Source: Candidatus Poribacteria bacterium (GTDB lineage Bacteria > Poribacteria > WGA-4E > WGA-3G). From it: a stretch of DNA of 64,000 nt. The stretch covers positions 2,528,001 through 2,592,000 of the forward strand of contig OZ244048.1 in assembly GCA_965215265.1 (NCBI GenBank), read 5' to 3'. The translations under genes and the position numbers were made by a program. Position 1 is the stretch's first letter. Every line of letters begins with the position of its first letter. The notes beneath the pieces were generated by a model. It ran no database searches. It saw only the letters and a list, made by a program, of their open reading frames with translations, and was not told where the DNA came from. Of the stretch, positions 1,338-60,919 are shown one piece after another.

Positions 1338-1348
1338 GATTATCTTAT

Positions 1349-2662: not shown

Positions 2663-2699
2663 GGATTGAGATATATCCTCTCTCGTTGTAAATAAAATT

Positions 2700-6966: not shown

Positions 6967-7038
6967 TTGGCAGGATAGGATAAGATTACCTTTTACCTGC
7001 CATCTATAGATCGGGGGTTATCTATGCTATGATTCATA

Positions 7039-8505: not shown

Positions 8506-8548
8506 TTTTGTTTGACTCCTTGGAGCGTCAGGAAAAGTGTGAGATTTT

Positions 8549-9031: not shown

Positions 9032-9139
9032 ATTTTTGTCGTTCCGTTGCGTCCCTGCCAATGTGCGTGTGACATTTGCGTGGAGCAGTCAGATGTCTTG
9101 TGAAAACAGAGAGGCTTGCTCGCCTTGTTGGGCGGGTTC

Positions 9140-10606: not shown

Positions 10607-10619
10607 TCAGTTGTGCTCC

Positions 10620-10916
10620 TTACGCGGTTTCAATTACTCTGGGGACTCCGAAATATCCAGTTTCTGCTTCAGGTGCATTAGCGAGTACCTCTTCGCGCGG
10701 ATAGGAGGGTTTAACGATATCCGGCTTGGTGACATTTTGGAGTGGGTGGATGTGCGATGTGGGTGGTACGTCATCCGTCTCCAATTCATTCAACTTTCCG
10801 ATATAGTCCAAGATTCTGGCAAGCTGCTCGGTGAAGTGTTGCGTCTCTTCGTTGTTAAATTCGAGACGTGCTAAGTTTGCGACGTGAAGTACGTCTTCGG
10901 TGTTAATCGTTGCCAT
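10620..10916 (-). CDS. gatC: Asp/Glu-tRNA amidotransferase subunit C
   Basis: VxHVAxLARL...NAPE...YFxVPRVIE; directly upstream of gatA. Confidence 0.95.
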   Translation of the reverse strand: MATINTEDVLHVANLARLEFNNEETQHFTEQLARILDYIGKLNELETDDVPPTSHIHPLQNVTKPDIVKPSYPREEVLANAPEAETGYFGVPRVIETA

Positions 10917-10950
10917 GATTTTTGTTGTCTCCTAACGGGCCTGGTAAGGC

Positions 10951-11000
10951 TTTTTGTATCTCTCCGTACCATCATCACTTATGTCGCGATGTCTTGTGTG
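10951..11000. repeat. dispersed ~50 bp intergenic repeat, copy B
   Basis: Matches 6917-6966. Confidence 0.75.
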
Positions 11001-11124
11001 TAAATCTCGTCAGAGCCTTCTTAGGTTATGATTCCTCAAAAACTTTTCGCGCAATCTCTTCAATCTCGAATGGACTAAACAGATACGTCCTACCGGCCCT
11101 TGTTGCTTGTGAGTTTCGACTTTT

Positions 11125-30346: not shown

Positions 30347-32785
30347 ATGCGTAAGTCCTGTCTTATTGCAACAATAGCGATTTTTGTGGTTTCCGTTACG
30401 TTGGGTACGTTGGGCAGAAGTGCCCGCGCACATACGTTGGACGGAGGTGCCCACACGCAACATCCTGATTTTCATGTTGGCCCTGACAGCATCACCTTTT
30501 CTAACCCAAACCCTATTGAAGGCGAAGAGATTACTATCTATGTTGCAGTGAAGAACATTGGGGATGTGACACCGACCATGAATCAGGATTTGGTTGTTGA
30601 ACTTTACGAGGCGCATCCAGCCACACAGCCGCTCCAAATTCTATGTACGGATGTTATCTTAGAATTAAAACCCAGGCAAGCTGACCGTGTGAAAACGCAG
30701 TGGAGACCGCCTCCCGGACAGACTGAGATTTATGCTGTCGTTAACCCTAAAGGGAAACAGTATATTCATGAAGCAAACAGAGACAACAACGTCGCGTCCG
30801 CCGTGCTGGCTGCAAAATCGAGGACATTTCCTCCGGCAACCCCGGAGAGCATCCAGAACGCAATCGCCAAAGGAGTGGCGTGGATTGAGGCACAACAAGG
30901 TAAACACAGCCGTATCTGTCTACAGTGTGGGACTGAAAACCAACTGATTTTAACTTGTATTGCTTGTGGTGCAAACCTGAAAGGTGTCGCTGAAAATTTT
31001 GTGCCCGGCTCTGTTTGGGATTTTGGAGAAGACCGAACCCAGGAGACATCGCTTGCCTTGCAGGCATTGTTCGCCTCTGGCCGTACTCCAGATCATCCGT
31101 CGGTTCAGAAAGGTATCACCTTTCTGCTGGAACAGAATTGGAACGAGTTTGCCGTTTACCACTATGCGGTCATAGTGCCTGTTTTAGTGGCAAGTCAGAA
31201 TCCTGCGTATAGAGAACGCGTCCAATTCGCTGTGAATCAGTTAGTCAAAAAGCAGCTGCCGGTTCCCGGAAGTGAATTTGCTGACGAGCGAGACGATGGC
31301 GGCTGGGGCTATGGCTACAGTGCGGATGGCGCGCACATGAACATGGTCGTCTACGCGCTCTATGCAGCCAAGCATGCCCAACTTGAAATTCCACAGCAGG
31401 TCTGGGAACGTGCGGAACAGTGGATCCGTAGGAACCAAACCGAAACTGGTGGCTGGCTCTATAATCTGGTAGAGGAAGGTTCTCCCTGGGCAATAGGTGT
31501 TTACGGTAGTATGACGGCAACGGGGCTGTGGGCACTTCGTGCGTGTGGTGTACCTGTGGAAGACCCACAAATTCAGAAAGGCACCGCATGGGTAAAAAAG
31601 CATTGGACTTTGACCCGGAACCCCGGCTCTAACTCCTGGCTGTACTATTATCTCCTTTCGTTGCAACGGTTCTGTGACATTCCGCCCAGCCTCAATACAC
31701 TTGCTGGACATAACTGGTACGATGCATTTGCGGGGATGATGGTGGCAAAACAGGAAGCAGATGGAAGATGGCGCGATTCAGAAGGTGATTTTACCGCTAC
31801 CTGTTTCGCCGTGATGACCTTGAACCATGCCCTGGTGGGGCCGACAGCGCCTAATATCGGGATTGTACCGCGGAGCCTGCGGTTTTCGCCCCCGGCACCC
31901 CGTGTTGGTGAAGCTGTACGCCTGAGCGTCACACTCAGAAATACGGGAACTCCATTTGATGAACTTCTGAATGTTGAATTCTATGCAGATGACGTGAAGG
32001 TCAGCACCGCTGAAGTGCTTTGGACCTCGACGCTTGGGGATACATCCGTATCCACTGACTGGGTGCCAACCGCGGAGGAAAAAGTTAAAATCAGGGCACA
32101 GGTTGTTTTTGAGGACACAGATGCGAGCGACAATACTGAATCGGCGTTCGTTACCGTCTATCCGAAGGACACTGCTGCTACAGATACGCAGATGGCGAAA
32201 CCGCAGAAACTTGGAGACGGGGTTTACCAGCTCGGTAATGTGGTTTTTGATGTTAAGAAACGTGAAGTTACGGTGCCGGGCGAAATTAATATTGTCGGTG
32301 CGGACGCAAATATTGAATTCTTTGCTTGTGGTAAACTGGGTAAGACGCACGAAAGCGTTCTTATCCTTGATGCGGAGCCGTTTTATATGTATGCTGCGCT
32401 GGGTTCACTTGAGTTTAAGGCGGGTATGAATCTCGTTGAGGAAGGCGACCTGCGCCGACCGGAAGGTGCCCTCGTTGAAATCTGGGTAGAATGGGAACGT
32501 GGGGATGAGACTATTTTTCGCCGGGCGGAGGACTTGGTATGGAACACTTTCGAGGAACGCCCGATGCAAGAAACGCCCTGGGTTTTCACCGGGGGGCGGG
32601 TTGTAAATGACCAGCTCACCACGCAACTTTTTCATAACATCATTGCTGTTTATCGAGATCCGGATTCGCTTTTCAACCACCCATTGCCGACAGGGACTAA
32701 TGATCTAACTTATCGTGTGAATACTGATATCATTCCGCCTAAAGGCACAAAGGTTAAGGTAATTATCCGACCTGTGCAGGCTTAG
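30347..32785 (+). CDS. secreted multidomain protein: CARDB + prenyltransferase/squalene-cyclase-like barrel + CARDB + YdjY-like domain
   Basis: PNPIEGEEITIYVAVKNIG...EANRDNN (CARDB), QxxxGGWxY repeats, a second CARDB-like domain and C-terminal EFFAC..GKTHES..W.FTG. Confidence 0.75.
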   Translation: MRKSCLIATIAIFVVSVTLGTLGRSARAHTLDGGAHTQHPDFHVGPDSITFSNPNPIEGEEITIYVAVKNIGDVTPTMNQDLVVELYEAHPATQPLQILCTDVILELKPRQADRVKTQWRPPPGQTEIYAVVNPKGKQYIHEANRDNNVASAVLAAKSRTFPPATPESIQNAIAKGVAWIEAQQGKHSRICLQCGTENQLILTCIACGANLKGVAENFVPGSVWDFGEDRTQETSLALQALFASGRTPDHPSVQKGITFLLEQNWNEFAVYHYAVIVPVLVASQNPAYRERVQFAVNQLVKKQLPVPGSEFADERDDGGWGYGYSADGAHMNMVVYALYAAKHAQLEIPQQVWERAEQWIRRNQTETGGWLYNLVEEGSPWAIGVYGSMTATGLWALRACGVPVEDPQIQKGTAWVKKHWTLTRNPGSNSWLYYYLLSLQRFCDIPPSLNTLAGHNWYDAFAGMMVAKQEADGRWRDSEGDFTATCFAVMTLNHALVGPTAPNIGIVPRSLRFSPPAPRVGEAVRLSVTLRNTGTPFDELLNVEFYADDVKVSTAEVLWTSTLGDTSVSTDWVPTAEEKVKIRAQVVFEDTDASDNTESAFVTVYPKDTAATDTQMAKPQKLGDGVYQLGNVVFDVKKREVTVPGEINIVGADANIEFFACGKLGKTHESVLILDAEPFYMYAALGSLEFKAGMNLVEEGDLRRPEGALVEIWVEWERGDETIFRRAEDLVWNTFEERPMQETPWVFTGGRVVNDQLTTQLFHNIIAVYRDPDSLFNHPLPTGTNDLTYRVNTDIIPPKGTKVKVIIRPVQA

Positions 32786-36424: not shown

Positions 36425-37756
36425 CTACGAAATGCTCAGTCCGTGCTTTATTTTAGCGACGAGCTGCTCGCGTGGTATAGTCTGTTGTGTTCTGCTCGCG
36501 AGGTGCCGGATAGCGACGTTCCCGGCTTCCACCTCGTCAGGCCCGAGGATCGCAACGTAAGGGATACCTCTGCTATCAGCGTACTTGAGCTGCCCACTAA
36601 GGCGTGCAGCATGAAAATAGACTTCGGTTTGTACACCCGCTTGGCGAAGAGAGGTTGCCAATTTGAGGGATTCCTGCATCAGTTGTTCATCAAAGAGAGT
36701 GACAAGTACCTGTGTCACCGTTTTTCCGACAGTGGGAGGGAACATAGAGAATTCCTCCATTACATCAATAATGCGTTCAATGCCGAAACTTGTTCCTGTT
36801 GCTGGATGACTCTGTTTACTGAAGTTTCCGATGAGTTCGTCGTATCTGCCGCCGCCGGTGATGCTACCGATTTTTGGTTGTTCGACAACCGTTTCATAAA
36901 TCGGACCTGTGTAGTACTCGAGGCCACGCACCATTGCGACGTTCACCCGGTAGCATTCCTCAGGAAGTTGGAGCATAGCGAGGTAGCTGCTGAGTTCTTT
37001 CAATTCAGCGATACCTTCCGTTGCGACTTCGGAATTCTCGAGTTTTTCAGCAAGTGCCCCGAGCACCGTCTCTGCGTCGCCTTCTATTTGAAGGAGCACA
37101 AGGAGTTTTTCAATCACGGTTTCTGGAATTTCATTTTTGCGTAATTCTTCTCTCACGCCGTCCAATCCGATTTTATCCAATTTATCAATAGAACGGTAAA
37201 GTCCACCGAGTTGTTCTGAAGGCACGCCGGCGAATTGCCCAATTCCGGTGATGAGTTTCCGGTCATTGATATTGATTTCAAACTGTTTGAATCCAAGGCG
37301 AGATAACACCTGATAGATAAGATTCACGTTTTCGGCGTCAGCCAACATGCTGTCGCTGCCGACGGTATCTGCATCGCACTGATAGAATTGCCTGTAACGT
37401 CCTTTCTGCGGACGTTCAGCGCGCCACACCGGGTCGATCTGGTAGCGCTTAAACGGTTTGGGCAGCTGCGGGTACATAGCGACGACACGGCAGAGCGGCA
37501 CGGACAGATCATAGCGCAGCGAGATATTCTCCTTGCCGCCGCTGTGTCCCGCCTGATAAATGAGTTTCTCTGCATCCGGTCCGTACTTGCCCATTAGCAC
37601 CTCTGAGAGCTCAAGTGCGGGTGTCTGCAGTGGTTCAAACCCGAAAGTCTCAAAGACGCCGCGAATGACATCTATGACGTAGTGCCTGCGAATCATCTGT
37701 TCTGGTAAAATATCCCGCGTTCCCCGGGGGACGCGCGGTTTGATAAAATTTGCCAC
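36425..37756 (-). CDS. hisS: histidyl-tRNA synthetase
   Basis: RGTRD, LRYDL, WRAERPQKGRYRQFYQCDAD, RGLEYYTG, GGGRYD, GIER and an anticodon-binding domain. Confidence 0.96.
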   Translation of the reverse strand: MANFIKPRVPRGTRDILPEQMIRRHYVIDVIRGVFETFGFEPLQTPALELSEVLMGKYGPDAEKLIYQAGHSGGKENISLRYDLSVPLCRVVAMYPQLPKPFKRYQIDPVWRAERPQKGRYRQFYQCDADTVGSDSMLADAENVNLIYQVLSRLGFKQFEININDRKLITGIGQFAGVPSEQLGGLYRSIDKLDKIGLDGVREELRKNEIPETVIEKLLVLLQIEGDAETVLGALAEKLENSEVATEGIAELKELSSYLAMLQLPEECYRVNVAMVRGLEYYTGPIYETVVEQPKIGSITGGGRYDELIGNFSKQSHPATGTSFGIERIIDVMEEFSMFPPTVGKTVTQVLVTLFDEQLMQESLKLATSLRQAGVQTEVYFHAARLSGQLKYADSRGIPYVAILGPDEVEAGNVAIRHLASRTQQTIPREQLVAKIKHGLSIS

Positions 37757-37792
37757 TGTTTTATCTCCGTTAGATTAGATTATCCTCTTTTT

Positions 37793-38572
37793 TTATATGT
37801 GTCCTGGGAGCGCTTGACTCCGTCGTCTGCGCAACCCTTTCTCCAACGTCTGCTTGAATTCCTCAATTTTCTCCTGCTTCCACGTATCCCTGAGAGACTT
37901 CGGATTTGCAATCAGAGTGGATTCGGACTCCCGTAGCAACTCAATGACTTTGAGTTCATTCGCGAGAAGCGTTCGCCGGGATGAGGTTGAATTGTCGATA
38001 ATAGCATCTGCCTCTTCCGGTGGTTTCCCTTCCGTCGCGCCAAAAGAGAGCATGAGCGTGAAGGGTGACTGGTAACTGCCACGAGTGTTGAGTCGCTTCC
38101 ACGGTGTTAAGATAGCAGGTGCAATTTTGTTATCGGTTTTTTCAAGGATATATTTCTCCGCGATGTTTAGATATTCAGTAGCGATGCGGATATCCCTATC
38201 GGCGAGATTCATCAGATCTTTAAATGTGTGGATATCTTCGCTTTGTTGCCGGACTGCTAAGACAATATCAATGCGTCCATATTCCAAAGGTAGGATTTCT
38301 TGAACATCTGCGTCTGTTTCTTCTACCCAATCTTGCCCTGTGATGCCTAAGTCGTAGAAGTCATCTATTCCGACGTAGACAGGGATCTCTTGTGGGCGCG
38401 AAATTTTTATCTGAAATTCACTGGCATTACGAATTGTGGCCCGATAGGATCTGTCTGTAGCACTGTATCCGTTGACATCGTACCCGGCACGTTGAAACAT
38501 CTCAAGCGTTTCGGACTGTAAAGAGCCTTTAGGTAAAAGGAGTTTCAACGTTTTTTGTGATTGGTTTTGCAT
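37793..38572 (-). CDS. hisG: ATP phosphoribosyltransferase, short form
   Basis: LPKGSL, RPQEIP, DLGITGQD, IATEY, GATE; no C-terminal regulatory domain. Confidence 0.9.
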   Translation of the reverse strand: MQNQSQKTLKLLLPKGSLQSETLEMFQRAGYDVNGYSATDRSYRATIRNASEFQIKISRPQEIPVYVGIDDFYDLGITGQDWVEETDADVQEILPLEYGRIDIVLAVRQQSEDIHTFKDLMNLADRDIRIATEYLNIAEKYILEKTDNKIAPAILTPWKRLNTRGSYQSPFTLMLSFGATEGKPPEEADAIIDNSTSSRRTLLANELKVIELLRESESTLIANPKSLRDTWKQEKIEEFKQTLEKGLRRRRSQALPGHI

Positions 38573-38607
38573 AATAGGTTTCCCCTTCTGTTGTATATCT
38601 GCCCGAT

Positions 38608-40023
38608 TTAGAGCTCTGCGAGTTGGCACTGCTGGACTACGCCTGTTTTGAGATGCCTCCGCTGCATCGGTTCATCTACACTTAAGATGAGCACATACTC
38701 GTAGCCGGTCTGTGCGGCATAATCCAGCTGTGCCTGAGCGTCGCGTTCCATCAGGTCAACTTCCACGGTTTTGCCATCACGCCGCAGAGTTTCAGCAAGA
38801 CGTTGTGCTTCAGCAGCGAGCTCCGGCAAAGCCGTTGCAATGAAGTAGTCCTTTTTTTGTTGAAGCGATGCCGGCTCTGTTTGCGCGAAAACCTTCATCA
38901 GTGCGTCAAAGTGGAAGGCAAAACCGGCCCCGGGAAGTGGAGGACCTCCGAAGGTTTCAATGAGAGTGTCGTAGCGCCCACCGCCACAGAGGGGCAGCTG
39001 CAGCTCTGTTGATTCAATTTGAAAGACGGTACCCGTGTAGAAATCAAATCCACGTGTGAGCCCGAGGTCTATCTCAAAGTTGGTGATATCGTGATTCCGA
39101 AGCGCCTGACAGAGTGCTATGAGTTCCTTTTTTTCTTCATTTGCGATGCCGTCGAGATACTTGTCCCACACCGCTAAGACCTGTTCCTGAGCACCTCGAA
39201 TCTTTGAGACAGCGATACAGCATGCTGCAATCTCTTCCGATACTTGTAGATATCGATGCCATCTCGCCTTATAAGTTGATTCAGCAATTCTCGGCAGGTT
39301 CTCTGCCCATATTGCGGCGTTACTTTCAGAGAGTTCCTGAATGGTGTCCAATTCAATTTTGTGGGGGTAATCGGAACCTTGTATCCGTCGGAGTGTGTTG
39401 AGTTCATCTCGAATTTCTTCTACGTTAGGTGTGCTATGCAAACTTCCGGTTCTTTGGCGAGCGAGGGCATCTAAATCCATGATGATTTCGCCAAGGTCGC
39501 TTGGGTGGAGTTGGACGTTTTGAAAGATTCTGCGGAAGATACCAGGGTTGCCGATTTTGAGTTTTGTCTTGTTGACGTTCAGTTTCTCGAAGATGCGTAC
39601 CGGCATCGTTATAATTTCCGCGTCCGCAAGCACAGATTCGGCCCCGATCAGCTCAACACCGGCTTGCCGAAATTCCCTTCCGGCCGGCTCTTGGCGGACG
39701 CATTGCCCGACGTAGTAAAGTTTATACGGATAAGGCAGATGTTGGAGACTGCCATTTGCGATGAGCCTGCAGACAGGTGCAGTCAATTCAGGTCTCAAGG
39801 CATAATCTACCCGGTCTGATCCGACAAATGTAAACATTTTCTGACGTACCTCTTCGCCAGCCTGCGCGGATAAAAGCGCGAACGATTCAAACAGCGGTGT
39901 CTGAACCTGCGCGTATCCGTATGCCTCAAAGGTTTGACGAACGATATTTTCCACGTAATTCCTCTGAACCATCTGCTCAGGCAGAAAATCGTTTGTGCCA
40001 ATGGGTTTCGTAAACTTTTCCAT
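38608..40023 (-). CDS. hisZ: HisZ-like ATP-PRT regulatory subunit (HisRS paralog)
   Basis: LRPELT, truncated motif 2 (RQEPAGREFRQAGVE), FYTG, GGGRYD, AGFAF; next to short hisG and a separate intact hisS. Alternative start at 40047. Confidence 0.8.
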   Translation of the reverse strand: MEKFTKPIGTNDFLPEQMVQRNYVENIVRQTFEAYGYAQVQTPLFESFALLSAQAGEEVRQKMFTFVGSDRVDYALRPELTAPVCRLIANGSLQHLPYPYKLYYVGQCVRQEPAGREFRQAGVELIGAESVLADAEIITMPVRIFEKLNVNKTKLKIGNPGIFRRIFQNVQLHPSDLGEIIMDLDALARQRTGSLHSTPNVEEIRDELNTLRRIQGSDYPHKIELDTIQELSESNAAIWAENLPRIAESTYKARWHRYLQVSEEIAACCIAVSKIRGAQEQVLAVWDKYLDGIANEEKKELIALCQALRNHDITNFEIDLGLTRGFDFYTGTVFQIESTELQLPLCGGGRYDTLIETFGGPPLPGAGFAFHFDALMKVFAQTEPASLQQKKDYFIATALPELAAEAQRLAETLRRDGKTVEVDLMERDAQAQLDYAAQTGYEYVLILSVDEPMQRRHLKTGVVQQCQLAEL

Positions 40024-40100
40024 AGATGGTGGAACCTCTATCATCATAAATTAGGTTAATCAATTTTGTTTGTGAGGTCAACCCCACAATTGGATATATC

Positions 40101-41205: not shown

Positions 41206-41684
41206 CGCGTTTTTTTTGTTGTTTTCTAGCTCTTTTTATGGTATCATTAAAATGATAAGCGGTAGGTTTCTATGTTAGGGCAAAACTCCAAAATTCATAT
41301 TTGAGAGATACGGAAATTTGTCCAGTTTTACGCCTAGGGTTATTTAGTTTTCGACATTTTTGTGAATTTGCGAGCGATTACTCCTACAAGAGAGTCCAGC
41401 GATTTAGAGCATGTTCATAACGTAGAACCAAAACGCCCTGCCTTACCCCAATTTAATTTGACTTTTTCTTAATAATTAGGGTAAACTTATTTTTTTAGGG
41501 TCAGCTTATCTTTTTAAGGAAAGCACGTTTTTGCGTGCATAACGGAAACCAGTCGATGTGAAAGATGCTTCCGGATAGGAAGCAAACTACAGGTCTCACG
41601 TCAGATCTGTCAAAGTGAAAATCGATGTTTGTACCGCGACATAGGACAAGCATCAAAATAGTAATAAATTAGGAGAATTGTCTA

Positions 41685-44459
41685 ATGAAATATCAGCTTT
41701 TCAATAGGGAAATCGTTTTTTCCTTAGTAGCTGTAGTTATGTTTCTCGGTTTGACAGCAATGAGTTACGGTCAAGCCGTCGTTTCTGTAGAGCCAGCTGA
41801 AATTGAATCCCCGGCGGCCGGAGAACAACTGGTGGTCGATATTAACATAACCGGGGGACAAGATGTCGCAGGATATCAAGTAACGGTAACCTTCGATCCG
41901 ACAGCACTGAGTTATGTTGATGGGAGTAATGCGACTTACCTTCCAGGTGCCTTCGCAGTTCCTAACGTAACAACCGAAAATAGCGTCATAATCGCCGCAA
42001 CTCTTCTGGCAGGAGCAGCTGCAAATGCCAATGGCACGCTCGCCCAGGTGACATTTGAGGTTGTGGAGGCAAAAGCATCTGCAATTTCGTTATCGGATGT
42101 TGTCCTCGCGGATGCTGCGGGTAATGCCTTGGATGCCACAACTACGGATGGTGCAGTGACTGTTGCAGCAGCCGAAGCACCTGCCGAAGCAGAAGCTGAA
42201 ACGGAGGCACCTGCTGAAGCACCTGCCGAAGCACCTGCTGAAGCCGAAACGGAAGCACCTGCTGAAACCCCTGCAGATGCAGAAACGGAAGCACCTGCAG
42301 ATGCAGAAACGGAAACCCCTGCTGAAACCCCTGCAGAAGCCACCGCTGAAACGGAAACCCCTGCCGAAGCAGAAACGGAAGCACCAGCTGAAACCGAATC
42401 GGAAATGCCGGCCAGCCAAATGTTTGAGATTACTCTTACCAACCTCACCACCGGTGAAGCCGGAAGTGGTGGACAGGTTTTGTCACCCCCTATTTTCGTG
42501 GCGCACGCCGCTGGTATTAATCTCGCAACCCCCGGTGAACCAGCGACTCCGGCTATCGTTGCCCTCGCAGAAACCGGTGATGTCTCAGGACTTGCCGTTT
42601 TGGCAGCTGCAGCGAATGCAAACGCTGTCCTTGCAGAGGGACCAGTCGTTCCCGGCGGGAGTCTTACCGTTACGGTGACGGCTGATGCAGTGAACTCTTC
42701 GCTTTCGGTGGGCTCCATGCTAGTTTCAACAAATGATGGCTTCATTGCACTCACAGATGTTCCACTTTTCGGTGAAGATGGAACGCCCGTTGAGACGAGC
42801 ATCGACCTAAATGCCTACGATGCAGGAAGCGAAGACAATAATGAATTGGCTACGCATATTCCGGGGCCATTGGGTTTAGATGCGGCCGCTGATCCAGAGG
42901 GTAGCAACGAACGTATGGAAACTGTAGGTGGCGTGATTACTCCACATCCGGGAATCCAAGGCGTTGGCGATGTCTCGGAAGCATTCGCTTGGACTGAACC
43001 GACAGCAATGCTGACGATTACACCGGTTGCAGCAGAAGCACCAGTGGTAGAAGCACCTGTAGTAGAAGCACCTGTAGTAGAAGCACCAGTGGTAGAAGAA
43101 CCGGAAATGCCGACAGAACACGGTTTTGACCTTGCGTTAGAAGCGGGGTTGAACATGATTTCTATCCCACTTATGCCGGAAGAGCCTTATACCGCAAAAT
43201 CCTTAGCAGATATGCTGGGTTCAACTATTGTGGTCAAACTGGATGCTACAACGCAAAGCTTCGTTGGTTACACAGTTGCTGCAGATGATGACGGTTTTGC
43301 AATTGACGGCGGGCGCGGCTATATCGTCAATACGCCGGCGGGCGGCGTTGTGACGTTCACCGGTAAAGCCTGGTCAAACCAACAGACTGAGGCAGACGCA
43401 CCTGCAGAAGCAGAAGTCGAAACGGAAGCCCCTGCTGAAACCCCTGCTGAAGTAGCAGCCGAAACGGACGCACCTGCCGAAGCAGAAGCCGAAACGGAGG
43501 CACCTGCTGAAACCCCTGCTGAAGCAGCAGCTGACACAGAAGCACCTGCTGAAGCAGCAGCTGAAACGGAAGCACCCGCAGACGCAGCCGCTGAAACGGA
43601 GGCACCTGCCGAAGCACCTGCCGAAGCCGAAACGGAAGCACCAACTGAAACCCCTGCTGAAGTAGCAGCCGAAACGGAAGCCCCTGCAGACGCAGTCGCT
43701 GAAACGGAAGCACCCGCAGACGCAGCGGCAGATGCAGTCGCTGAAACAGAAGCCCCCGCAGAAGCACCCGCTGAAACGGAAGCAGCCGCAGAAGCCCCCG
43801 CAGAAGCAGCCGCTGACACAGAAGCACCCGCAGCACCTGCCCGTACCTTTAGAAGCGCGTGGGCGTTCGTCGTTACAAGCGAATTGCGGGGCATGGAAGC
43901 CGGGGCAGCCTATAACGTGGTTGCAGAAAACCTACGCACGGGTGCTGTCACGAGTGAGAGCGTCACCAGTGACATGAAACGTTCCTCTGCCGTGTGGGCA
44001 GACTTGAATCGGAAGAGCGTTGTTGAAGCTGGCGATAAACTGGAAATTACGCTTTACGATACACGCGGGAACATCGTCTCGGGTCCATTCCAGCGGACAG
44101 TATCGACTGCGGATATTCGCAACGCCTATCTGAACCTCCAGCTGGAAGTCGGCGATGTGAAGCCGCAGGATACACTCCTCGCACAAAACTTCCCGAATCC
44201 GTTTAACCCTGAAACCTGGATTCCTTATCAGCTGAATAAAGACGCTGAAGTAAAAATCCAGATTTTCGACACCGCCGGACGTTTGGTTCGGACACTGGAT
44301 TTGGGCTGGAAACCGACAGGTTCTTACATGAACCCCTCAAGTGCAGCGTACTGGGATGGTAGGAATGAAGTAGGTGAGGGCGTTGCGAGTGGTATCTACT
44401 TCTACACTCTCACAACCGAAGGCTTTGCCGCAACTCGCAAGATGGTTATCCTTAAGTAA
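41685..44459 (+). CDS. secreted cohesin + Spondin_N protein with acidic A/E/P/T linkers and an FlgD-Ig/T9SS-like C-terminal domain
   Basis: Signal peptide; cohesin (VAGYQVTVTFDPTAL..GTLAQVTFEVV); Spondin_N (FEITLTNLT..LSP..LAETG..SMLVSTNDGF..AYDAGSE); AETEAP repeats; QNFPNPFNPETWIPY..WDGRN..SGIYFY. Confidence 0.85.
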   Translation: MKYQLFNREIVFSLVAVVMFLGLTAMSYGQAVVSVEPAEIESPAAGEQLVVDINITGGQDVAGYQVTVTFDPTALSYVDGSNATYLPGAFAVPNVTTENSVIIAATLLAGAAANANGTLAQVTFEVVEAKASAISLSDVVLADAAGNALDATTTDGAVTVAAAEAPAEAEAETEAPAEAPAEAPAEAETEAPAETPADAETEAPADAETETPAETPAEATAETETPAEAETEAPAETESEMPASQMFEITLTNLTTGEAGSGGQVLSPPIFVAHAAGINLATPGEPATPAIVALAETGDVSGLAVLAAAANANAVLAEGPVVPGGSLTVTVTADAVNSSLSVGSMLVSTNDGFIALTDVPLFGEDGTPVETSIDLNAYDAGSEDNNELATHIPGPLGLDAAADPEGSNERMETVGGVITPHPGIQGVGDVSEAFAWTEPTAMLTITPVAAEAPVVEAPVVEAPVVEAPVVEEPEMPTEHGFDLALEAGLNMISIPLMPEEPYTAKSLADMLGSTIVVKLDATTQSFVGYTVAADDDGFAIDGGRGYIVNTPAGGVVTFTGKAWSNQQTEADAPAEAEVETEAPAETPAEVAAETDAPAEAEAETEAPAETPAEAAADTEAPAEAAAETEAPADAAAETEAPAEAPAEAETEAPTETPAEVAAETEAPADAVAETEAPADAAADAVAETEAPAEAPAETEAAAEAPAEAAADTEAPAAPARTFRSAWAFVVTSELRGMEAGAAYNVVAENLRTGAVTSESVTSDMKRSSAVWADLNRKSVVEAGDKLEITLYDTRGNIVSGPFQRTVSTADIRNAYLNLQLEVGDVKPQDTLLAQNFPNPFNPETWIPYQLNKDAEVKIQIFDTAGRLVRTLDLGWKPTGSYMNPSSAAYWDGRNEVGEGVASGIYFYTLTTEGFAATRKMVILK
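42166..42400 (+). repeat. coding low-complexity repeat (AETEAP/AETPA)
   Basis: Degenerate GAAACGGAAGCACCTGCT-type units. Confidence 0.8.
43385..43840 (+). repeat. coding low-complexity repeat (AETEAPAEAA)
   Basis: Same unit family as 42166-42400. Confidence 0.8.
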
Positions 44460-44491
44460 CTATCGCAGCGAAAAAGTTTTCTTGTATTTGC

Positions 44492-44525
44492 CCGGAGATA
44501 AAGGTTTAAATACCTTTATCTCCGG
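44492..44525. terminator. strong hairpin between the cohesin and dockerin genes
   Basis: 14-bp inverted repeat CCGGAGATAAAGGT / ACCTTTATCTCCGG with no U-tract. Confidence 0.45.
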
Positions 44526-44631
44526 CGGCTATCAAGAAACGCCTCGTCCTATCCAATAGACATTGTCCTATAACTGGGCACTTTATCGGATGGCCGGGGC
44601 GTTTTCTAAGTTATGCACAAAGGAGCTCATT

Positions 44632-45729
44632 TTGATTTGCAAAAGAGATATTTTCTATATGTTGGCAATCATTGCACTCGTCTTCAGTGTTGATAGCGGT
44701 AGTGCATTTGCTTTATCTTTCGATCCACCGAATGAAAAAACAGGTGCCCCTAACGACGGTAGCTGCATCGAATGCCACGTCGATAACGATTTAAACACAC
44801 CAGGGGGATTATTGACACTTGAATTTCCTCAAACTTATATCCCGAATGAGGTTTACACAATTGTCGTCAGTTTAGCGCGCCCGGGGCAAAGCCGTTGGGG
44901 ATTTGAAATGACAGCACTGGATGGAAACGGTGCAAGTGCCGGTTCCTTTGAAATCACCGATGTAGAAAATACACAGAAATCCGTGGCGAACGGTAAGCAA
45001 TATATTAAGCAGACGTTCACCGGAACCGCACAAGGAACGAACGATGGAAATCAGTGGACTGTTGAATGGACTGCCCCGGATGCAGAGATAGGTCCGATTA
45101 CATTTTACGCTGCAGGTAACGCAGCCAATGCCGATTCGAAACCATCAGGGGATTATATCTACACAACACAAGGGGAATCCACACGGGCAATTCCGACAGT
45201 TGCAGGCGTTACATTGGAAGGCGAGAGAGAAAAAACTACGATGGATGCGGTCACAGGGGTGAGTTATACCCTCAAGGTCACGAATACCGGCAATATGACA
45301 GATACGGTAACGCTCGAAACTTCAGCGGAAGTAGGTATTGAGGCGAGTGTTCTCGGGACTTTGAGCCAGAATTCAATAGAACTTGACAGCGGTGCGAGCT
45401 CGGATGTTACATTGATGGTAAAGGGAGATACGTTGACGGCACCCGGTGATTATGAAATTACAGTGACAGCAACCTCTAAAACTGATAGCACGATGACTGC
45501 CGAGTTTACAACGACTACTACGATAGAAATGCCTCCGCCTGAGGTTCCACCTTGGGATGTCAATGGTGATGGCACTGTGAATATACAGGATTTAGTATTA
45601 GTCGCGGGCCAATTCGGTCAGCGTGGGGAATCCGTTGTCGGCGATATCAATGGTGATGGCACTGTGAATATACAGGATTTGGTTCTCGTTGCTTCACGTT
45701 TCGGTGAAAAAACGGGCGCAGGTCAGTAG
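44632..45729 (+). CDS. secreted Reeler-like (choice-of-anchor V type) CxxCH protein with an Ig domain and type I dockerin
   Basis: AGGAG before TTG 44632; signal peptide; TGAP..SCIECH..GFEMTA..WTAP..ITFYAAGNAAN..GDYIY; duplicated DVNGDGTVNIQDLVLVA dockerin. Confidence 0.82.
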   Translation: MICKRDIFYMLAIIALVFSVDSGSAFALSFDPPNEKTGAPNDGSCIECHVDNDLNTPGGLLTLEFPQTYIPNEVYTIVVSLARPGQSRWGFEMTALDGNGASAGSFEITDVENTQKSVANGKQYIKQTFTGTAQGTNDGNQWTVEWTAPDAEIGPITFYAAGNAANADSKPSGDYIYTTQGESTRAIPTVAGVTLEGEREKTTMDAVTGVSYTLKVTNTGNMTDTVTLETSAEVGIEASVLGTLSQNSIELDSGASSDVTLMVKGDTLTAPGDYEITVTATSKTDSTMTAEFTTTTTIEMPPPEVPPWDVNGDGTVNIQDLVLVAGQFGQRGESVVGDINGDGTVNIQDLVLVASRFGEKTGAGQ

Positions 45730-54431: not shown

Positions 54432-57305
54432 ATGTCAAACAAAGAAGACCTCATCACAACTGCATTCGTCAAAGTGCTGCGCCCTATGCGACACGCATGG
54501 ACACTTACGCAACATCCGTCAAAACCCTTCACCGAAAATGATAGGGAACCTGATGTCATTGTCACCGAACCGAGACGGAACCCCATCGCTATTGAAGACA
54601 AAGTTGACAATCCACGCGGCACAGAGCTCAGTGGTGAAAAGCAGCTCAATGATTTTTACCTCGGTAAAACGCTTAAGACGACGGCCCAGAAAATTCAGAC
54701 CGGCATCGCTGTTCGGTTTCCGTACGAATTCAGAGAGATCGAGCAAGCCGAGCTTGATGAAAAAATGGCAAAAGCCTCAGACATCGCTTACTGTCTCCTC
54801 AGCATAGATGAACCGCACCGCTTCCCGAAAGACGGCTGGCTAACGGGCAGTGTAGCAGACATCGCAACTGCGATTCGCATTGGAGCGATGCCAATCGCGA
54901 AAATTAATGAAGCGTCGAAGATGCTAGAACGTGGTGTGGATACTGCAGGCGAGCTCGTTGATGCGGCGATCGCTGAAAGGCCTGAGATCGGGCATCGGAT
55001 CGAAAAAATCCTCTACCAAGAGTACTGTCCTCAGACAACGCGGATGGCAATGCTTATCATCGGGAATGCTTTTATCTTTCAAAGTTCCCTCGCTGGGAAA
55101 CCCGACTTGGAGACGGTGCCCTCGCTGAGTGGCCTCCGAAGTCAAAACGGCTTACTTGATTCTGATCTCGTTTTTGATGCGTGGTATACTATCCAGACAG
55201 TCAACTATCACTCCATCTATGATGTGGCGGTTGCCTTAGTCAACGCCATCGCCCTCGATGACCAGCTCGTCGGCAAGGTACTTTGGACGCTTCGCAACAC
55301 TGCGCGGAGTTTAGAGCAGATGGGACTTGCAAGAGAGCATGAACTCGCGGGGATAGTTTTTCAGAAACTTATTACAGACAGGCGGTTCATTAAGGCACAC
55401 TACACACGTCCTGAATCATCAGCACTGCTTTCTGCACTCATGTTACCTGAATTAAAGGGCAATGCTAAGCGAATTAAAGTGGCTGACTTCGCTTGTGGAA
55501 CTGGGACCCTCCTCAACAGTGTCTACCAACGCATACTCGGATTTCATGAACAAGCGGGCGGAAAGGGACAAGATATCCATCGAGACATGCTCGAAAACAA
55601 CATCGTCGGTTGTGATATCCTGCCCAATGCTGTACATCTTACGACATCCATTATTGCCAGTACCTATCCGGATATCAAAATGACGGACACACGCATCCAT
55701 ACGATGGCGTACGGGACGCAGCAACCCGACGGACAATACGCTATCGGGGCCCTAAACCTGCTTCGCAACCCAGAAGAGACACTACCCATCCCGATGACAA
55801 TAAGCCGTAGAGTCAGTGCAAGCGAAGACACAGAGACACATGCGCAGAAAGAATTTAGGCACGAAGAATTCGATCTGGTGATACAGAATCCTCCCTATAC
55901 CAAAGGGAATACGGATGGAAATTCCAAAATCCCGAAAACAACGTTTGGCGATAAAGACCCCACGGTCGAAAGGGCAATGAAAAAATCGCTCAAGGCCCAG
56001 AAATGCAGTGTGGCCGACGGCAATGCCGGCATCGCCTCACACTTCGTTGAGCTCGCCGATAAGATGCTGAAACGCAACGGGAGGATCGGTATAGTGCTGC
56101 CCATAAATGCTATCGCAGGCACAAGTTGGCGCAAGGTGCGAAACCTATGGGCGAAGCAATACCACGATGTTATTGTCGTCACTATCGCAGGTGCCAAGAT
56201 TGAAAACAGCACCTTCTCCGCGGATACAGGCATAGCGGAGTGTCTCGTTATTGCCACCAAAGGGAAATCGGACAATACAGGCAGAGGTACTTTTGTTTGC
56301 CTACACCGGCGCCCCGCAGGCGTGCTGGAGGCACTCGAAATCGCAAATCAGATCCACAGGCTGAAGGACATCCGACAGCTTGAAAGCGGTATCACCGGTG
56401 GAAACCCTATCAAGGTGGACATAGAACCCGTCGGCTATGCGATGAACGCCCCCTGCCCAGATGTGGATGAGGGATGGATAGTATGCCGCGTCAAAGATAT
56501 GGGGCTCGTTCAATCGGCATATCAACTCGCCAACGGGTCCCTGAGACTTCCACGACAGACAGAGGCAATTCCGATTCCGATCCGCCGGTTGTCCGACATT
56601 GCCAAAACAAGCCTGGGGCCCCTGGCGATATACGGTGATGGCGGAGAAGGCGTGTTTGACGTTGAGACACGGTGTCCGGAGACTGCAGATTACCCATGCC
56701 TCTGGCATGTTAATTCCAAAATACAGACGGCGATGCTTGTAGAACCCGATGCCCACGCGCTTCCACGCCCTGATTGTGAAAACAAAATCCCGAGAATCAT
56801 GGCACGCAACAGTCGGATTCACTACAGTCAAAGCATCCGGTTTAATGCGGGTTCAGTACTCGTGATGTTTACGGAACAGAAAACCATCGGCGTGAATACG
56901 CTCCCGAATGTTCGCTTTACCAGCGACAAGTATGAATACGCGTGGGCATTGTGGGGCAATTCAACGCTCGGATTGCTCTGCCATTGGATGCAAGCGGGCA
57001 AACAGCAGCAGGGACGCGGTATACTCGGAAAAATGACTTTGCGTTCTCTACCGACATTGGATGTCACGCAGTTGAGTCCGTCTCAACTAGAGGCTGCACA
57101 GCAGATTTTCCATGGGTTAAAACACCAGCAGATGCTTCCGTTCAACGAGATGGTAGTTGACCCGGTGCGGCAGGAACTCGATCGGCTGCTGTTATCAGAG
57201 GTATTGGGTTTTGGAGAGGGGACGCATGCTGAAGTACATGAGGGGCTTGCGCTGCTCCGCAAAAAGCTCTGCGCGGAACCGAGTGTCCACGGCGGCAAAG
57301 GATGA
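54432..57305 (+). CDS. type IIG-like fused restriction endonuclease/N6-adenine methyltransferase
   Basis: N-terminal PDV..IEDK, HYT, DFACGTG, NPPY and a C-terminal target-recognition region. Confidence 0.85.
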   Translation: MSNKEDLITTAFVKVLRPMRHAWTLTQHPSKPFTENDREPDVIVTEPRRNPIAIEDKVDNPRGTELSGEKQLNDFYLGKTLKTTAQKIQTGIAVRFPYEFREIEQAELDEKMAKASDIAYCLLSIDEPHRFPKDGWLTGSVADIATAIRIGAMPIAKINEASKMLERGVDTAGELVDAAIAERPEIGHRIEKILYQEYCPQTTRMAMLIIGNAFIFQSSLAGKPDLETVPSLSGLRSQNGLLDSDLVFDAWYTIQTVNYHSIYDVAVALVNAIALDDQLVGKVLWTLRNTARSLEQMGLAREHELAGIVFQKLITDRRFIKAHYTRPESSALLSALMLPELKGNAKRIKVADFACGTGTLLNSVYQRILGFHEQAGGKGQDIHRDMLENNIVGCDILPNAVHLTTSIIASTYPDIKMTDTRIHTMAYGTQQPDGQYAIGALNLLRNPEETLPIPMTISRRVSASEDTETHAQKEFRHEEFDLVIQNPPYTKGNTDGNSKIPKTTFGDKDPTVERAMKKSLKAQKCSVADGNAGIASHFVELADKMLKRNGRIGIVLPINAIAGTSWRKVRNLWAKQYHDVIVVTIAGAKIENSTFSADTGIAECLVIATKGKSDNTGRGTFVCLHRRPAGVLEALEIANQIHRLKDIRQLESGITGGNPIKVDIEPVGYAMNAPCPDVDEGWIVCRVKDMGLVQSAYQLANGSLRLPRQTEAIPIPIRRLSDIAKTSLGPLAIYGDGGEGVFDVETRCPETADYPCLWHVNSKIQTAMLVEPDAHALPRPDCENKIPRIMARNSRIHYSQSIRFNAGSVLVMFTEQKTIGVNTLPNVRFTSDKYEYAWALWGNSTLGLLCHWMQAGKQQQGRGILGKMTLRSLPTLDVTQLSPSQLEAAQQIFHGLKHQQMLPFNEMVVDPVRQELDRLLLSEVLGFGEGTHAEVHEGLALLRKKLCAEPSVHGGKG

Positions 57306-60451: not shown

Positions 60452-60919
60452 TTAACGCTTTTTTAGTGTCGGTGCTTTCAATTCTGGTGCGTTCGGTTTC
60501 TTCTGTTCTGGGACGGCGAAGGCGATATAATTCCGTTTGCCGAGTTGTTGCATGAACATAATGAGTGAGGTTTCGGCTTCTTTTCGTGTTAACTGATGTT
60601 CTTTTTGTATACCTTTGATAATTTGTGCGATGGTATGTTTTCCGTCACACCGGTACCATACATAGGAGCCCATCGCATCGAGGACAATGACGCGTTTATT
60701 GGGGAGCATGAAGAATTTGCTAGCGAGTCGTACCCACAATTTATCTTTCTGTGGGACGACAAGCGACGTTTCCCCTTTGTCATCGACTTCCCATGTGATG
60801 AGTTCGTTTCGGACAGGAAACACTTGCATCAAGCGGTTCCTGTCCATGTCTGGGCGTTTCTTCAATTTGAGTGCGTATAGAATTCTATTGAGCATTTTTT
60901 GTATACTGTAGCCCAACAA
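60452..60919 (-). CDS. PqqD-family / RRE-domain protein
   Basis: LDAMGSYVW..CDG.HTI.QI......EAE......L.K pattern. Start may be at 60895. Confidence 0.8.
   Translation of the reverse strand: MLGYSIQKMLNRILYALKLKKRPDMDRNRLMQVFPVRNELITWEVDDKGETSLVVPQKDKLWVRLASKFFMLPNKRVIVLDAMGSYVWYRCDGKHTIAQIIKGIQKEHQLTRKEAETSLIMFMQQLGKRNYIAFAVPEQKKPNAPELKAPTLKKR

Follow-up and report, generated by a model that had tools for sequence, protein, structure and literature searches.

Cohesin and dockerin modules are reportedly widespread outside cellulosomes, as Peer and colleagues are said to have found in 2009, and two adjacent poribacterial genes, here called A and B, resemble such non-cellulosomal systems, exemplified by the NagJ cohesin family of Clostridium perfringens, in that one secreted protein bears a cohesin and another a Ca-loop dockerin, with no glycoside hydrolase. 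The gene A family profile matches the solved NagJ cohesin 2ozn_A (E 2.4e-6), and that of gene B the solved dockerin 2y3n_B (E 5.3e-8). The differences concern the host, a Gram-negative candidate phylum, the presumed anchoring of A by a T9SS-type C-terminal domain instead of SLH or sortase, and the cargo, which is a Reeler-like domain with a CXnCH motif, on a scaffold that has a spondin domain itself. With the cellulosome, the pair shares the two-module assembly logic, the linker-rich scaffold and the duplicated dockerin, and the gene A profile also matches the type II cohesins of ScaB (3l8q_A, E 3e-8); unlike a cellulosomal scaffold, A has a single cohesin and no array, neither A nor B has a carbohydrate-active domain in Pfam or NCBIfam, and many proteins of related loci combine a dockerin with an anchor of their own, or a cohesin with a dockerin.

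As for the animal proteins, F-spondin comprises a reelin_N domain, an FS domain and six thrombospondin repeats; the FS domain has three disulfide bonds, and its hallmark motifs PSPDW and DAGTD hold Ca ligands (PMC3117680). Genes A and B likewise would bring a Reeler-type and an FS domain together, and the Ca-site motifs are partly kept in A; unlike F-spondin and mindin, they are two polypeptides, the Reeler-like domain of B is a member of a prokaryotic family whose anchors are interchangeable, and no Cys of the poribacterial spondin region is invariant or nearly so in the family alignment. The CYBDOM ferric reductases SDR2 and CG8399 are built of reeler, DOMON and cytochrome b561 domains, and thus also place a Reeler domain in an extracellular redox protein beside a beta-sandwich haem domain (PMC10691727); in these proteins DOMON and b561 hold haem b non-covalently and the reeler is not known as a haem binder, whereas in gene B a motif for covalent haem c lies within the Reeler-like domain itself. 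Finally, Poribacteria join spondin to a cytochrome P460-like haem domain in one chain: of 101 short spondin proteins, 12 have Cytochrome_P460 among their precomputed domains, and the combination was upheld in all five proteins rescanned, each with its own CxxCH. These lipoproteins (P0401, P0404, P0414 and relatives) are from the same phylum and have a spondin domain with 57-67% identity to the one in gene A; they differ from A and B in being single chains with Met/Asp-rich linkers and a lipoprotein-like signal, and in having no cohesin, dockerin or sorting domain.

The locus lies in a 64-kb window, the whole stretch of Candidatus Poribacteria DNA that was analysed, and its features are collected in Table 1. 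Genes A and B are two ORFs on the same (+) strand, exactly where an earlier note on this DNA had placed them, and their existence as adjacent domain-bearing genes is confirmed. The earlier note had called four domains (cohesin, spondin, Reeler-like, dockerin), all borne out by Pfam or NCBIfam profile matches, and had taken both products as secreted, in line with the signal peptide of each; its guess of a probable animal symbiont agrees with the homologues and related loci, which carry the name Candidatus Poribacteria, a sponge-associated phylum. Taken as a whole, its interpretation is partly supported.

Table 1. Features of genes A and B and of their flanking and intergenic regions (window positions)
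Feature	Position	Strand	Basis
Sigma-70-like promoter candidate for gene A (TTGACT, 18 nt, TAAACT)	41458..41487	+	consensus scan
Gene A, 924-aa secreted scaffold	41685..44459	+	ORF and translation
Cohesin domain, aa 31-160, directly after the signal peptide	41775..42164	+	Pfam PF00963
Acidic linker 1 (Ala 36%, Glu 30%, Pro 14%, Thr 14%)	42165..42413	+	DNA-level tandem repeat
Bacterial spondin (FS-like) domain, aa 244-448	42414..43028	+	NF038123
D3, ~89 aa, aa 478-566, no known family	43116..43382	+	conserved in family alignment
Acidic linker 3 (149 aa; Ala 42%, Glu 26%)	43383..43829	+	DNA-level tandem repeat
D4, ~115 aa, aa 716-830, no known family	43830..44174	+	conserved in family alignment
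C-terminal sorting domain (T9SS type A / FlgD Ig-like)	44175..44456	+	TIGR04183, PF18962, PF13860
Hairpin just past the gene A stop, no T run	44490..44529	+	window only
Conserved terminator-like hairpin (A run, G+C stem, T run)	44537..44605	+	5-locus alignment
RBS AAGGAG of gene B	44620-44625	+	6 nt before TTG
Gene B, 365-aa secreted protein, from the most likely start (TTG)	44632..45729	+	ORF 44563-45729; start conserved
Choice-of-anchor V / Reeler-like domain	44713..45177	+	NF041895, Pfam Reeler
CIECH motif in the choice-of-anchor V domain	44764-44778	+	sequence
Ig-like spacer domain, one copy	45178..45531	+	FixG_C-like
Dockerin, two near-identical 21-residue Ca-loop/helix segments	45553..45726	+	PF00404

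Gene A, with 330 homologues at E<=1e-3 among 8000 candidates, encodes in order a signal peptide, the cohesin, a linker, the spondin domain, a second linker, D3, a third linker, D4 and the sorting domain; all domains are conserved in a family alignment of 20 poribacterial homologues, among which linker 1 differs in length. The acidic Ala/Glu/Pro/Thr linkers (aa 161-243, 449-477 and 567-715) are tandem repeats in the DNA. Pfam Cohesin PF00963 matches aa 38-160 (E 8.7e-10, 39.4 bits; cut-off 24.1). At the other end, TIGR04183 (Por_Secre_tail) matches aa 836-922 with 36.1 bits (cut-off 23), PF18962 and PF13860 (FlgD_ig) exceed their own cut-offs, and there is a profile match to FlgD 3osv_A (E 1.6e-4). 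D3 had no Pfam match at E<=10 and no relative among solved structures, and no family was found for D4 in the same two sources; D3, D4 and the sorting domain occur together in 29 other ORFs of related loci. These three domains had been overlooked in the earlier note.

Regarding the spondin domain, the NCBIfam model NF038123 matches gene A at aa 246-446 (E 3.5e-34, 118.7 bits; cut-off 40), and gene A is missing from the matches of the Pfam Spond_N model at E<=0.1. Its identity is based on the NF038123 match, on the Spond_N matches of the gene A orthologues in L006 and L007, and on the match of the family profile to the FS domain of mindin (3d34_A, E 2.6e-4). The family-invariant residues D351, D379, A380, G381 and E383 sit in the stretches STNDGF and YDAGSED, which resemble the two FS hallmark motifs. 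Spondin domains are present also in free-living Gammaproteobacteria (Aliiglaciecola and Psychromonas are also listed) and in a halobacterial archaeon.

Gene B (1496 homologues at E<=1e-3 among 8000 candidates) encodes a signal peptide, the choice-of-anchor V/Reeler-like domain, an Ig-like domain and the duplicated dockerin; it lacks a sorting domain, which A possesses along with its cohesin. Its start is most likely the TTG, on account of the ribosome-binding site upstream and of the conservation of this start in all five aligned loci; the database copy, P0003 (356 aa), begins at the next ATG. In the numbering of the ORF, NF041895 matches aa 46-203 (E 6.1e-29), Pfam Reeler aa 90-183 (E 2.4e-5, 25.3 bits; cut-off 21), the latter being present in 23 of 32 family members, and Dockerin_1 aa 332-379 (E 1e-6, 29.3 bits; cut-off 22.9). 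The Ig-like stretch matches FixG_C with E 9.5e-4, under the cut-off of that model, and relatives have 2, at least 4 or up to 15 Ig copies.

Our preferred reading, held with moderate confidence, is that scaffold A and a docked, haem c-bearing gene B product constitute a surface-tethered spondin plus c-haem module. Its main competitor, doubtful in our view, holds that there is no dedicated pair, that A and B are independent members of a large, promiscuous lattice in which B would dock on any cohesin at hand, and that their adjacency is inherited order without function. The pairing is conserved in some of the relatives: A is followed by B in four of the six related loci with an A-type gene (L001, L002, L004, L006), and in L007 and L008 an undecaprenyl-diphosphatase gene comes next instead, as this competitor would have it. 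The whole neighbourhood of L002 and L004 is syntenic with the window (83-90% identity of the flanking genes), adjacency in these two therefore carries little weight, and only one locus gives more independent support; against the competitor, L006 retains the pair although its upstream gene differs. Both genes also seem to lie on a single contig of a second assembly, judging from P0492 (of the 90%-identity cluster of B) and P0123 (a gene A homologue), for which only the size of the longest contig, 175,388 nt in each, was matched.

The wider cohesin-dockerin repertoire bears on both readings. In 1.09 Mb of poribacterial loci there are 84 dockerin-bearing and 29 cohesin-bearing ORFs, the commonest architectures being X-dockerin-sorting domain (47) and cohesin-dockerin-sorting domain (18), and the dockerin segments of B are of a common poribacterial type, found for example in the cohesin-dockerin-sorting-domain proteins of L023, L031 and L051; A-B docking is therefore unlikely to be exclusive, and A need not be the receptor of B. 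No cohesin ORF accompanies 10 of 16 anchor-less dockerin ORFs in their locus (L001 is counted here, where the cohesin end of gene A falls off the contig), which counts against the preferred reading; the lattice is favoured by L003 and L005, in which dockerin proteins flank an anchor protein with no cohesin. On the other side, the 64 kb hold exactly one cohesin and one dockerin, and these adjoin each other, a placement with a chance of ~4% by our own rough arithmetic (random placement, ~50 genes in the window); the N-terminal cohesins of A type form one starred clade (97/98; nine rows, three of them L038 cohesins) apart from most others in a tree of 27 cohesins; and the P460 proteins provide an independent link in cis between spondin and haem. 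Docking of B on A is plausible.

The region between the genes can be read in both ways. A terminator-like hairpin separates them, in favour of no dedicated pair; all five aligned loci share its outer stem and T run, the 13 outer pairs are kept, the intergenic RNA folds with z = -5.99, and an Rfam search of the hairpin gave no family match. However, only ~26 nt lie between the T run and the start of B, which would leave no room for a separate promoter. The other hairpin, nearer to the stop of A, was not found in the other four loci of the alignment. Upstream of A, the candidate promoter, whose function is inferred, would leave a 5'UTR of ~200 nt, and both hexamer regions are conserved in L004 and L002.

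The CXnCH motif had been emphasized, as CxxCH, in the earlier note, and it is essentially invariant among relatives in the more general form. Among 120 close relatives of gene B, 54 have CX2CH and 65 CX4CH, the remaining one being truncated at the N-terminus; among 150 representatives (<=50% identity), n is 2 in 113, 4 in 22, 3 in 7, 5 in 4 and 7 in one, and the other three are two truncated proteins and one with AECH, whose Cys is its only one. In the alignment of 148 sequences (the query and 147 representatives), Cys, Cys and His are conserved at 99%, 100% and 100%, and the further conserved residues are Tyr, Trp and Asp, with no second His or Met to serve as distal haem ligand. The choice-of-anchor V family counts 5556 representative clusters, with the NCBIfam domain in 142 of 142 proteins scanned; the domain is rarely joined to a canonical cytochrome c domain (in 2 of 150, namely P0308 and P0325, of which P0325 has a dockerin too), and it is joined to a PQQ dehydrogenase in 2 of the 142. 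From these data, the domain most likely carries one covalent c-type haem at Cys-Xn-Cys-His, and the motif points to a redox or metal role over matrix mimicry. A rather improbable alternative takes the motif as a disulfide loop plus a His with a metal or structural role, making the domain an adhesin or a glycan/ligand binder on a B still tethered by cohesin. A disulfide would also tolerate the variable Cys spacing (n = 2-7), and this alternative suits the lack of a conserved distal His or Met, the absence of any other redox domain from most representatives, and animal Reeler domains being adhesion modules of unknown function (PMC10691727); against it stand the fully conserved His right after the second Cys, the one-Cys representative, in which a disulfide is impossible, the fusions to cytochrome c domains and PQQ dehydrogenases, and the spacings, which match CXXCH, CX3CH and CX4CH, motifs used for finding c-type cytochromes (PMC10734462). 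The disulfide alternative likens the domain to some members of the wider DOMON-like group.

Finally, the proposal of the earlier note that A and B form a split animal F-spondin (Reeler plus FS) mimicking a sponge ECM or immune protein is very unlikely, for although the phylum is sponge-associated, F-spondin does combine these two domains, B exceeds the Pfam Reeler cut-off, the spondin profile reaches mindin 3d34, and Poribacteria are known to combine eukaryote-like domains with such a sorting domain as a recurrent theme (PMC3909097), both domains are widespread prokaryotic modules (5556 clusters for one; Gammaproteobacteria and an archaeon for the other) fused to each other in 0 of 150 representatives, so that mimicry is not supported, no thrombospondin repeats were found in A or B with Pfam or NCBIfam, gene A goes unreported by Spond_N, the Reeler-like domain bears an invariant CXnCH and is elsewhere fused to cytochromes and PQQ dehydrogenases, and B is absent beside the A-type genes of L007 and L008.

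The preferred spondin plus c-haem module starts from the domain identities, motif conservation, partial synteny and network context established by the analysis, and from these we infer docking, haem attachment, cell-surface location, transcription pattern and function. The gene A product would be a Sec-exported cell-envelope scaffold, targeted to or anchored at the outer membrane by its T9SS-type domain; its long acidic linkers, presumably disordered, would project the spondin domain (predicted to be Ca-binding and C2-like), with the cohesin at the very tip. The gene B product, also Sec-exported and with no anchor of its own, would have a choice-of-anchor V (Reeler-like) head with haem near the mature N-terminus, followed by the Ig spacer and the symmetric, Ca-dependent dockerin, whose binding to a cohesin would retain it on the cell; its likeliest receptor, though probably not the sole candidate, is the cohesin of A, whose gene lies just upstream. 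Gene B is probably transcribed from the gene A promoter by read-through of the conserved hairpin, which would give lower amounts of B than of A.

The outcome would be a c-haem domain held beside a spondin domain, the arrangement that the poribacterial P460-like/spondin lipoproteins achieve in cis, and its likely job would be extracytoplasmic redox or metal/haem chemistry at the surface, neither cellulose breakdown nor matrix mimicry. In conclusion, the two proteins probably dock with each other, forming a small part of a far larger cohesin-dockerin network and not a copy of animal F-spondin.

The two co-oriented ORFs reported in the earlier note are present with exactly the coordinates it gave, and profile searches confirmed its cohesin, Spondin_N, Reeler-like and dockerin assignments. 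As for gene A, the scaffold gene of 924 aa, the description of a cohesin and a spondin domain on acidic linkers was right as far as it went, and it overlooked a T9SS-type sorting domain at the C-terminus and two conserved domains without a named family, here D3 and D4. From the N- to the C-terminus, the protein consists of a signal peptide, the cohesin, a linker of Ala, Glu, Pro and Thr, the spondin domain, a short linker, D3, an acidic linker of 149 aa, D4 and the sorting domain.

Features of gene A, gene B and their flanking signals (window positions, unless a related locus, L001 to L006, is named; aa, residues of the gene A product)
Feature	Position	Score vs cut-off	Remark
Promoter candidate, sigma-70-like	41458-41487		upstream of gene A; conserved in L004 and L002
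Gene A	41685-44459 (+)		924 aa
Cohesin PF00963 (Pfam)	gene A, aa 38-160	39.4 bits vs 24.1	E 8.7e-10
Bacterial spondin NF038123 (NCBIfam)	gene A, aa 246-446	118.7 bits vs 40	E 3.5e-34
D3	gene A, aa 478-566		conserved domain
D4	gene A, aa 716-830		conserved domain
Sorting domain, T9SS type A / FlgD-Ig kind (TIGR04183)	gene A, C-terminus	36.1 bits vs 23
A-B intergenic hairpin	44537-44605		A run, G+C stem of 10-13 bp, T run; conserved in 5/5 loci
Hairpin counterparts	L004:10681-10752; L002:9996-10069; L001:1087-1160; L006:9612-9683
Gene B, ORF	44563-45729
Choice-of-anchor V NF041895	gene B, N-terminal	101 bits vs 42	E 6.1e-29
Reeler PF02014 (Pfam)	gene B, overlapping choice-of-anchor V	25.3 bits vs 21
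Dockerin_1 PF00404	gene B, C-terminus	29.3 bits vs 22.9

The profile of the gene A family also matches solved cohesins. Regarding the spondin domain, Pfam Spond_N (PF06468) reported nothing on gene A at E ≤ 1e-1, and it scored above its cut-off in the gene A orthologues of L006 and L007; the spondin profile of the gene A family matched mindin (3d34_A) with an E-value of 2.6e-4. The hallmark motifs of the FS domain, PSPDW and DAGTD, are the source of its Ca ligands (PMC3117680). By sequence reading, YDAGSED of gene A matches DAGTD well, and of PSPDW only the Asp is retained, in STNDGF. Acidic residues that are invariant across 20 homologues sit in these motifs, which resemble the Ca-binding ones of F-spondin. 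D3 and D4 found no Pfam family even at E ≤ 10, and a sequence search against solved structures returned nothing related to either domain. At the DNA level the linkers are built of tandem repeats, and linker length varies between homologues: the database protein P0123 has 899 aa and is 100% identical to gene A over the matched part, and the acidic linker repeats lie at 42165-42413 and 43383-43829. Such differences between close relatives suggest that the repeats of the stalk expand and contract. The sorting domain is frequent in Poribacteria, and Por structural genes are reported as not detected in single-cell genomes of the phylum (PMC3909097).

Gene B encodes a signal peptide, the choice-of-anchor V domain, one Ig-like domain and a dockerin. 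At E ≤ 1e-3, the Pfam Reeler match recurs in 23 of 32 close relatives of gene B and in 35 of 142 proteins comprising P0007 and 141 distant representatives; all 142 match choice-of-anchor V. This domain had no sequence relative among solved structures, and the ESM Atlas held no entry for it, for P0003 (the database copy of gene B) or for P0110. The dockerin was judged by a tandem pair of segments, some 22 residues long, whose EF-hand-like loops should bear Asp or Asn at positions 1, 3, 5, 9 and 12; both segments of gene B read D-x-N-x-D-G-x-x-N-x-x-D, as nearly identical Ca-loop and helix units, and Dockerin_1 matched all 32 family members. The true start of gene B is most likely the TTG at 44632, because an AAGGAG motif lies six bases upstream and the TTG and the N-terminus that follows are conserved in all five aligned loci; from this start, the CIECH motif falls 18 residues after the predicted signal cleavage site. 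The number of Ig spacer copies varies, being one in the window, L002 and L004, two in L001, at least four in L006 and up to 15 in the representatives.

Both families are large and poribacterial: among 8000 candidates for each, at least 330 homologues of gene A and at least 1496 of gene B were found at E ≤ 1e-3, and the named homologues, like all but a few of the related loci, belong to Candidatus Poribacteria, a phylum known from marine sponges (PMC3909097). One gene A homologue, P0127, is filed under the sponge Geodia barretti and looks like symbiont sequence under another organism's name.

The gene pair is real and partly conserved. Only six of the 71 related loci have an A-type gene, because the contig profile scan used patterns drawn from the common sorting domain and most loci thus carry other proteins. 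In four of the six (L001, with only the 3′ part of A, L002, L004 and L006), a choice-of-anchor V/Ig/dockerin gene directly follows A; in L007, whose A-type gene has cohesin, spondin, D3, D4 and sorting domain, and in L008, which is alike but lacks spondin, the next gene encodes an undecaprenyl-diphosphatase and not B. L002 and L004 share the gene order of the window throughout the neighbourhood, their flanking genes being 83-90% identical, so that adjacency there carries little weight; L006, with a different upstream gene, is the more independent case. The homologue lists of A and B have only two contigs in common (163,772 and 5,179,575 nt), which has no bearing on adjacency. Six-frame profile searches of the window found exactly one cohesin and one dockerin, and the two adjoin.

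Regarding expression, the 479-nt intergenic region upstream of gene A (41206-41684) contains, besides the promoter-like site, more conserved blocks in the presumed 5′UTR. The hairpin between the genes ends about 26 nt upstream of the start of gene B; the inner part has diverged in the window and is well conserved in the other four loci, and the hairpin matched no Rfam family. It may act as a terminator, an attenuator or a leader. We infer partial termination with read-through, which would lower the amount of B relative to A; a role as regulatory leader is just as possible.

As for haem, the earlier note had proposed a possible c-type attachment site in the Reeler-like domain, and this stood to the extent that the motif proved near-invariant on a Sec-exported protein. 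The general form of the motif is Cys-Xn-Cys-His (CXnCH). It is present in 119 of the 120 listed relatives of gene B, as CX4CH in 65 and CX2CH in 54, the remaining one being truncated at the motif. The choice-of-anchor V domain alone, searched against 1.84 billion representatives, retrieved 5556 clusters at E ≤ 1e-3 and 2886 at E ≤ 1e-10. Among the best 150 of the 5556, the domain always starts before residue 90, near residue 30 in most, and 146 have CX2-5CH, with n=2 in 113, n=4 in 22, n=3 in 7 and n=5 in 4; the others comprise one with n=7, one with AECH containing its only Cys, and two truncated sequences. In an alignment of 148 sequences, Cys, Cys and His are conserved at 99%, 100% and 100%. 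Searches for c-type cytochromes use CXXCH, CX3CH and CX4CH motifs (PMC10734462), and a never-varying Cys-His with a first Cys at variable distance is, at the level of sequence, the signature by which these proteins are found.

The domain context agrees, in a minority of cases only: P0308, named by NCBI as from a Methanosarcinales archaeon, combines choice-of-anchor V with two canonical cytochrome c domains, P0325 has it together with both a dockerin and a cytochrome c domain, and a PQQ-dependent dehydrogenase accompanies it in two of the 142 proteins scanned. Anchors among these 142 are T9SS tails (32), Dockerin_1 (20) and a few PEP-CTERM. Haem on the CXnCH motif is therefore a well-motivated hypothesis. 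The main alternative is a disulfide loop with a metal-binding His and no haem. The 148 aligned sequences hold no further conserved His or Met in the domain (several Tyr and Trp and one Asp are conserved), and a scan of the 39 larger window ORFs reported no Ccm or Ccs family. Two candidate pieces of evidence for haem were discarded: Met93, which within Poribacteria looked like a distal ligand, is not kept more widely (Leu in 49%), and a match to a Shr-like haem protein in 11 of 32 gene B relatives falls on the Ig spacer and not on the CXnCH domain. Among the "choice-of-anchor" papers listed, no title or abstract concerned choice-of-anchor V.

The docking modules belong to a wider set. A profile search of the 71 loci (1.087 Mb in all), in which proteins with the gene A-type sorting domain are over-represented, counted 84 dockerin-bearing and 29 cohesin-bearing ORFs. 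The commonest forms with a docking module are X-dockerin-sorting domain (47 ORFs) and cohesin-dockerin-sorting domain (18); D3-D4-sorting domain (29) and dockerin only (12) follow, with few others; cohesin-spondin-D3-D4-sorting domain occurs four times and choice-of-anchor V/dockerin three. Examples of cohesin-dockerin-sorting domain proteins are found at L023:8001-9005, L031:8001-9008 and L051:8025-9053 and 10810-11811, and the union of a cohesin and a dockerin with their own anchor in one protein suggests that the cell surface bears chains or a lattice of them. A gene of this kind and of poribacterial type in L035, on a 5-kb contig binned as Rhodothermaceae, looks like misfiled symbiont sequence. 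The D3-D4-sorting domain segment is the C-terminal part common to a paralogous family in tandem arrays of three to four genes (L011, L012, L013, for example 2826-10827, L014, L016 and L019), the heads being HAF repeats, Big_1/invasin-like domains or unknown.

The dockerin segments of gene B share their sequence type with many dockerin proteins of the related loci. Among the 16 anchor-less dockerin ORFs, six have a cohesin ORF within 3 kb and ten have none in the sampled locus. L003:5899-9888 and L005:5993-10082 carry triplets of DUF3108-like/dockerin, DUF3108-like/D3-D4-sorting domain and DUF3108-like/dockerin, the same head thus being either anchored directly or fitted with a dockerin; neither locus has a cohesin. 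The six A-type cohesins, N-terminal in every case, form a starred clade (97/98) with three cohesins of L038, apart from most others, which counts against pure promiscuity. Judged from these patterns, B is likely to dock on some cohesin, and that of A would be the best single candidate receptor, exclusivity not being implied. Full-text literature searches for Poribacteria with dockerin found no relevant paper, and PMC3909097 does not use the terms cohesin, dockerin or spondin.

Spondin domains of the gene A type also occur in short proteins, 101 at E ≤ 1e-3. In 12 of these, of about 410-446 aa, the precomputed domain column lists Cytochrome_P460 (P0396, P0398, P0401, P0402, P0404, P0407-P0409, P0413-P0415 and P0419, all outside the window); each of the five rescanned has a Cytochrome_P460-like domain followed by Spond_N, and the three read have a lipoprotein-like signal, a CxxCH within the P460-like domain and linkers rich in Met and Asp, whose Met-rich stretches might bind metal. 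P0414 bears a poribacterial name and P0404 is encoded on the L054 contig, so Poribacteria, on their domain content, also join spondin to a c-haem domain in a single chain. These cis fusions give an independent reason to think that the purpose of the pair is to place the head of B beside the spondin domain of A. Other partners of spondin are CHRD (in archaeal P0464), DUF3108-like domains and PEP-CTERM; CHRD is also found with choice-of-anchor V, in P0364. In Pseudoalteromonas, two Spondin_N-like genes stand with an L-amino-acid oxidase gene in a putative operon (PMC6316408). The literature search found no paper that addresses what spondin domains do in bacteria.

The remaining window is ordinary chromosome, with genes for DNA repair, histidine, transporters and restriction-modification. 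Several restriction-modification or defence genes lie at 666-4958, 22530-25304 and 54432-57305, namely a BsaWI-like endonuclease accompanied by two N4/N6 methylases and an HNH protein, a 924-aa DUF1156 protein that is anti-phage-associated, and a 957-aa methylase/endonuclease of the Eco57I type. An 812-aa protein at 30347-32785 combines prenyltransferase/squalene-cyclase-like repeats, CARDB and a C-terminal YdjY; hisG is flanked at 36425-40047 by two histidyl-tRNA-synthetase-like genes, one presumably a regulatory HisZ. The segment 59307-63985, with a PqqD-like peptide chaperone (60452-60919), an ABC ATPase and, next to the chaperone gene, two large ORFs of 378 and 618 aa that match no family, may be a peptide-modification cluster.

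Taken together, the best reading of A and B, which we put at an even balance between right and wrong, is a cohesin-tethered and probably haem-bearing Reeler-like protein on a spondin scaffold, within a large poribacterial cohesin-dockerin network. A broader reading, which we hold tentatively and rate as rather doubtful, makes choice-of-anchor V an unrecognised and very large class of c-type cytochromes, each a beta-sandwich with a single haem, with thousands of clusters in bacteria and archaea, displayed on the surface by interchangeable anchors; in Poribacteria it would be plugged by a dockerin into the cohesin of a spondin-bearing stalk anchored by the sorting domain, within a phylum-wide non-cellulosomal lattice, and spondin would be the working partner of the haem. 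As suggested by the P460-spondin fusions in cis, spondin could then capture substrate or metal beside a centre of electron transfer; docking in the periplasm could let the anchor-less B ride out on the sorting domain of A.

Among known systems, the closest to the tethered arrangement is the non-cellulosomal NagJ cohesin family, and A and B would assemble by the cohesin-dockerin mechanism. The pair is not a cellulosome: there, carbohydrate-active enzymes sit on a multi-cohesin scaffoldin, whereas A has a single cohesin and profile searches found no glycoside hydrolase or CBM domain in either gene. The animal CYBDOM ferric reductases, with a reeler domain beside haem domains outside the cell (PMC10691727), are a parallel worth keeping. 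The earlier note's F-spondin-like mimic of a host matrix or immune protein finds no support in the architecture, and mimicry of a host matrix protein is very improbable: F-spondin unites Reeler, FS and thrombospondin type 1 repeats (TSRs) in one secreted chain, whereas the poribacterial pair consists of two chains without TSRs, made of prokaryotic modules with interchangeable anchors, and none of the 150 choice-of-anchor V representatives contains spondin.

To our knowledge, cohesin-dockerin assembly is understood almost solely for cellulosomes. In Poribacteria, an uncultivated phylum of sponge symbionts, it appears as a general kit for building the cell surface, with cargo that looks redox-active and not hydrolytic. 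As for sponge symbiosis, the pair is evidence against a simple "host-protein mimic" account of such eukaryote-like domains. If CXnCH binds haem, more than 5000 clusters now named only by their anchor would become candidate extracellular cytochromes, and bacterial spondin domains would gain their first testable functional lead. The main interest therefore lies in a possible unrecognised cytochrome family and a phylum-wide non-cellulosomal docking system.
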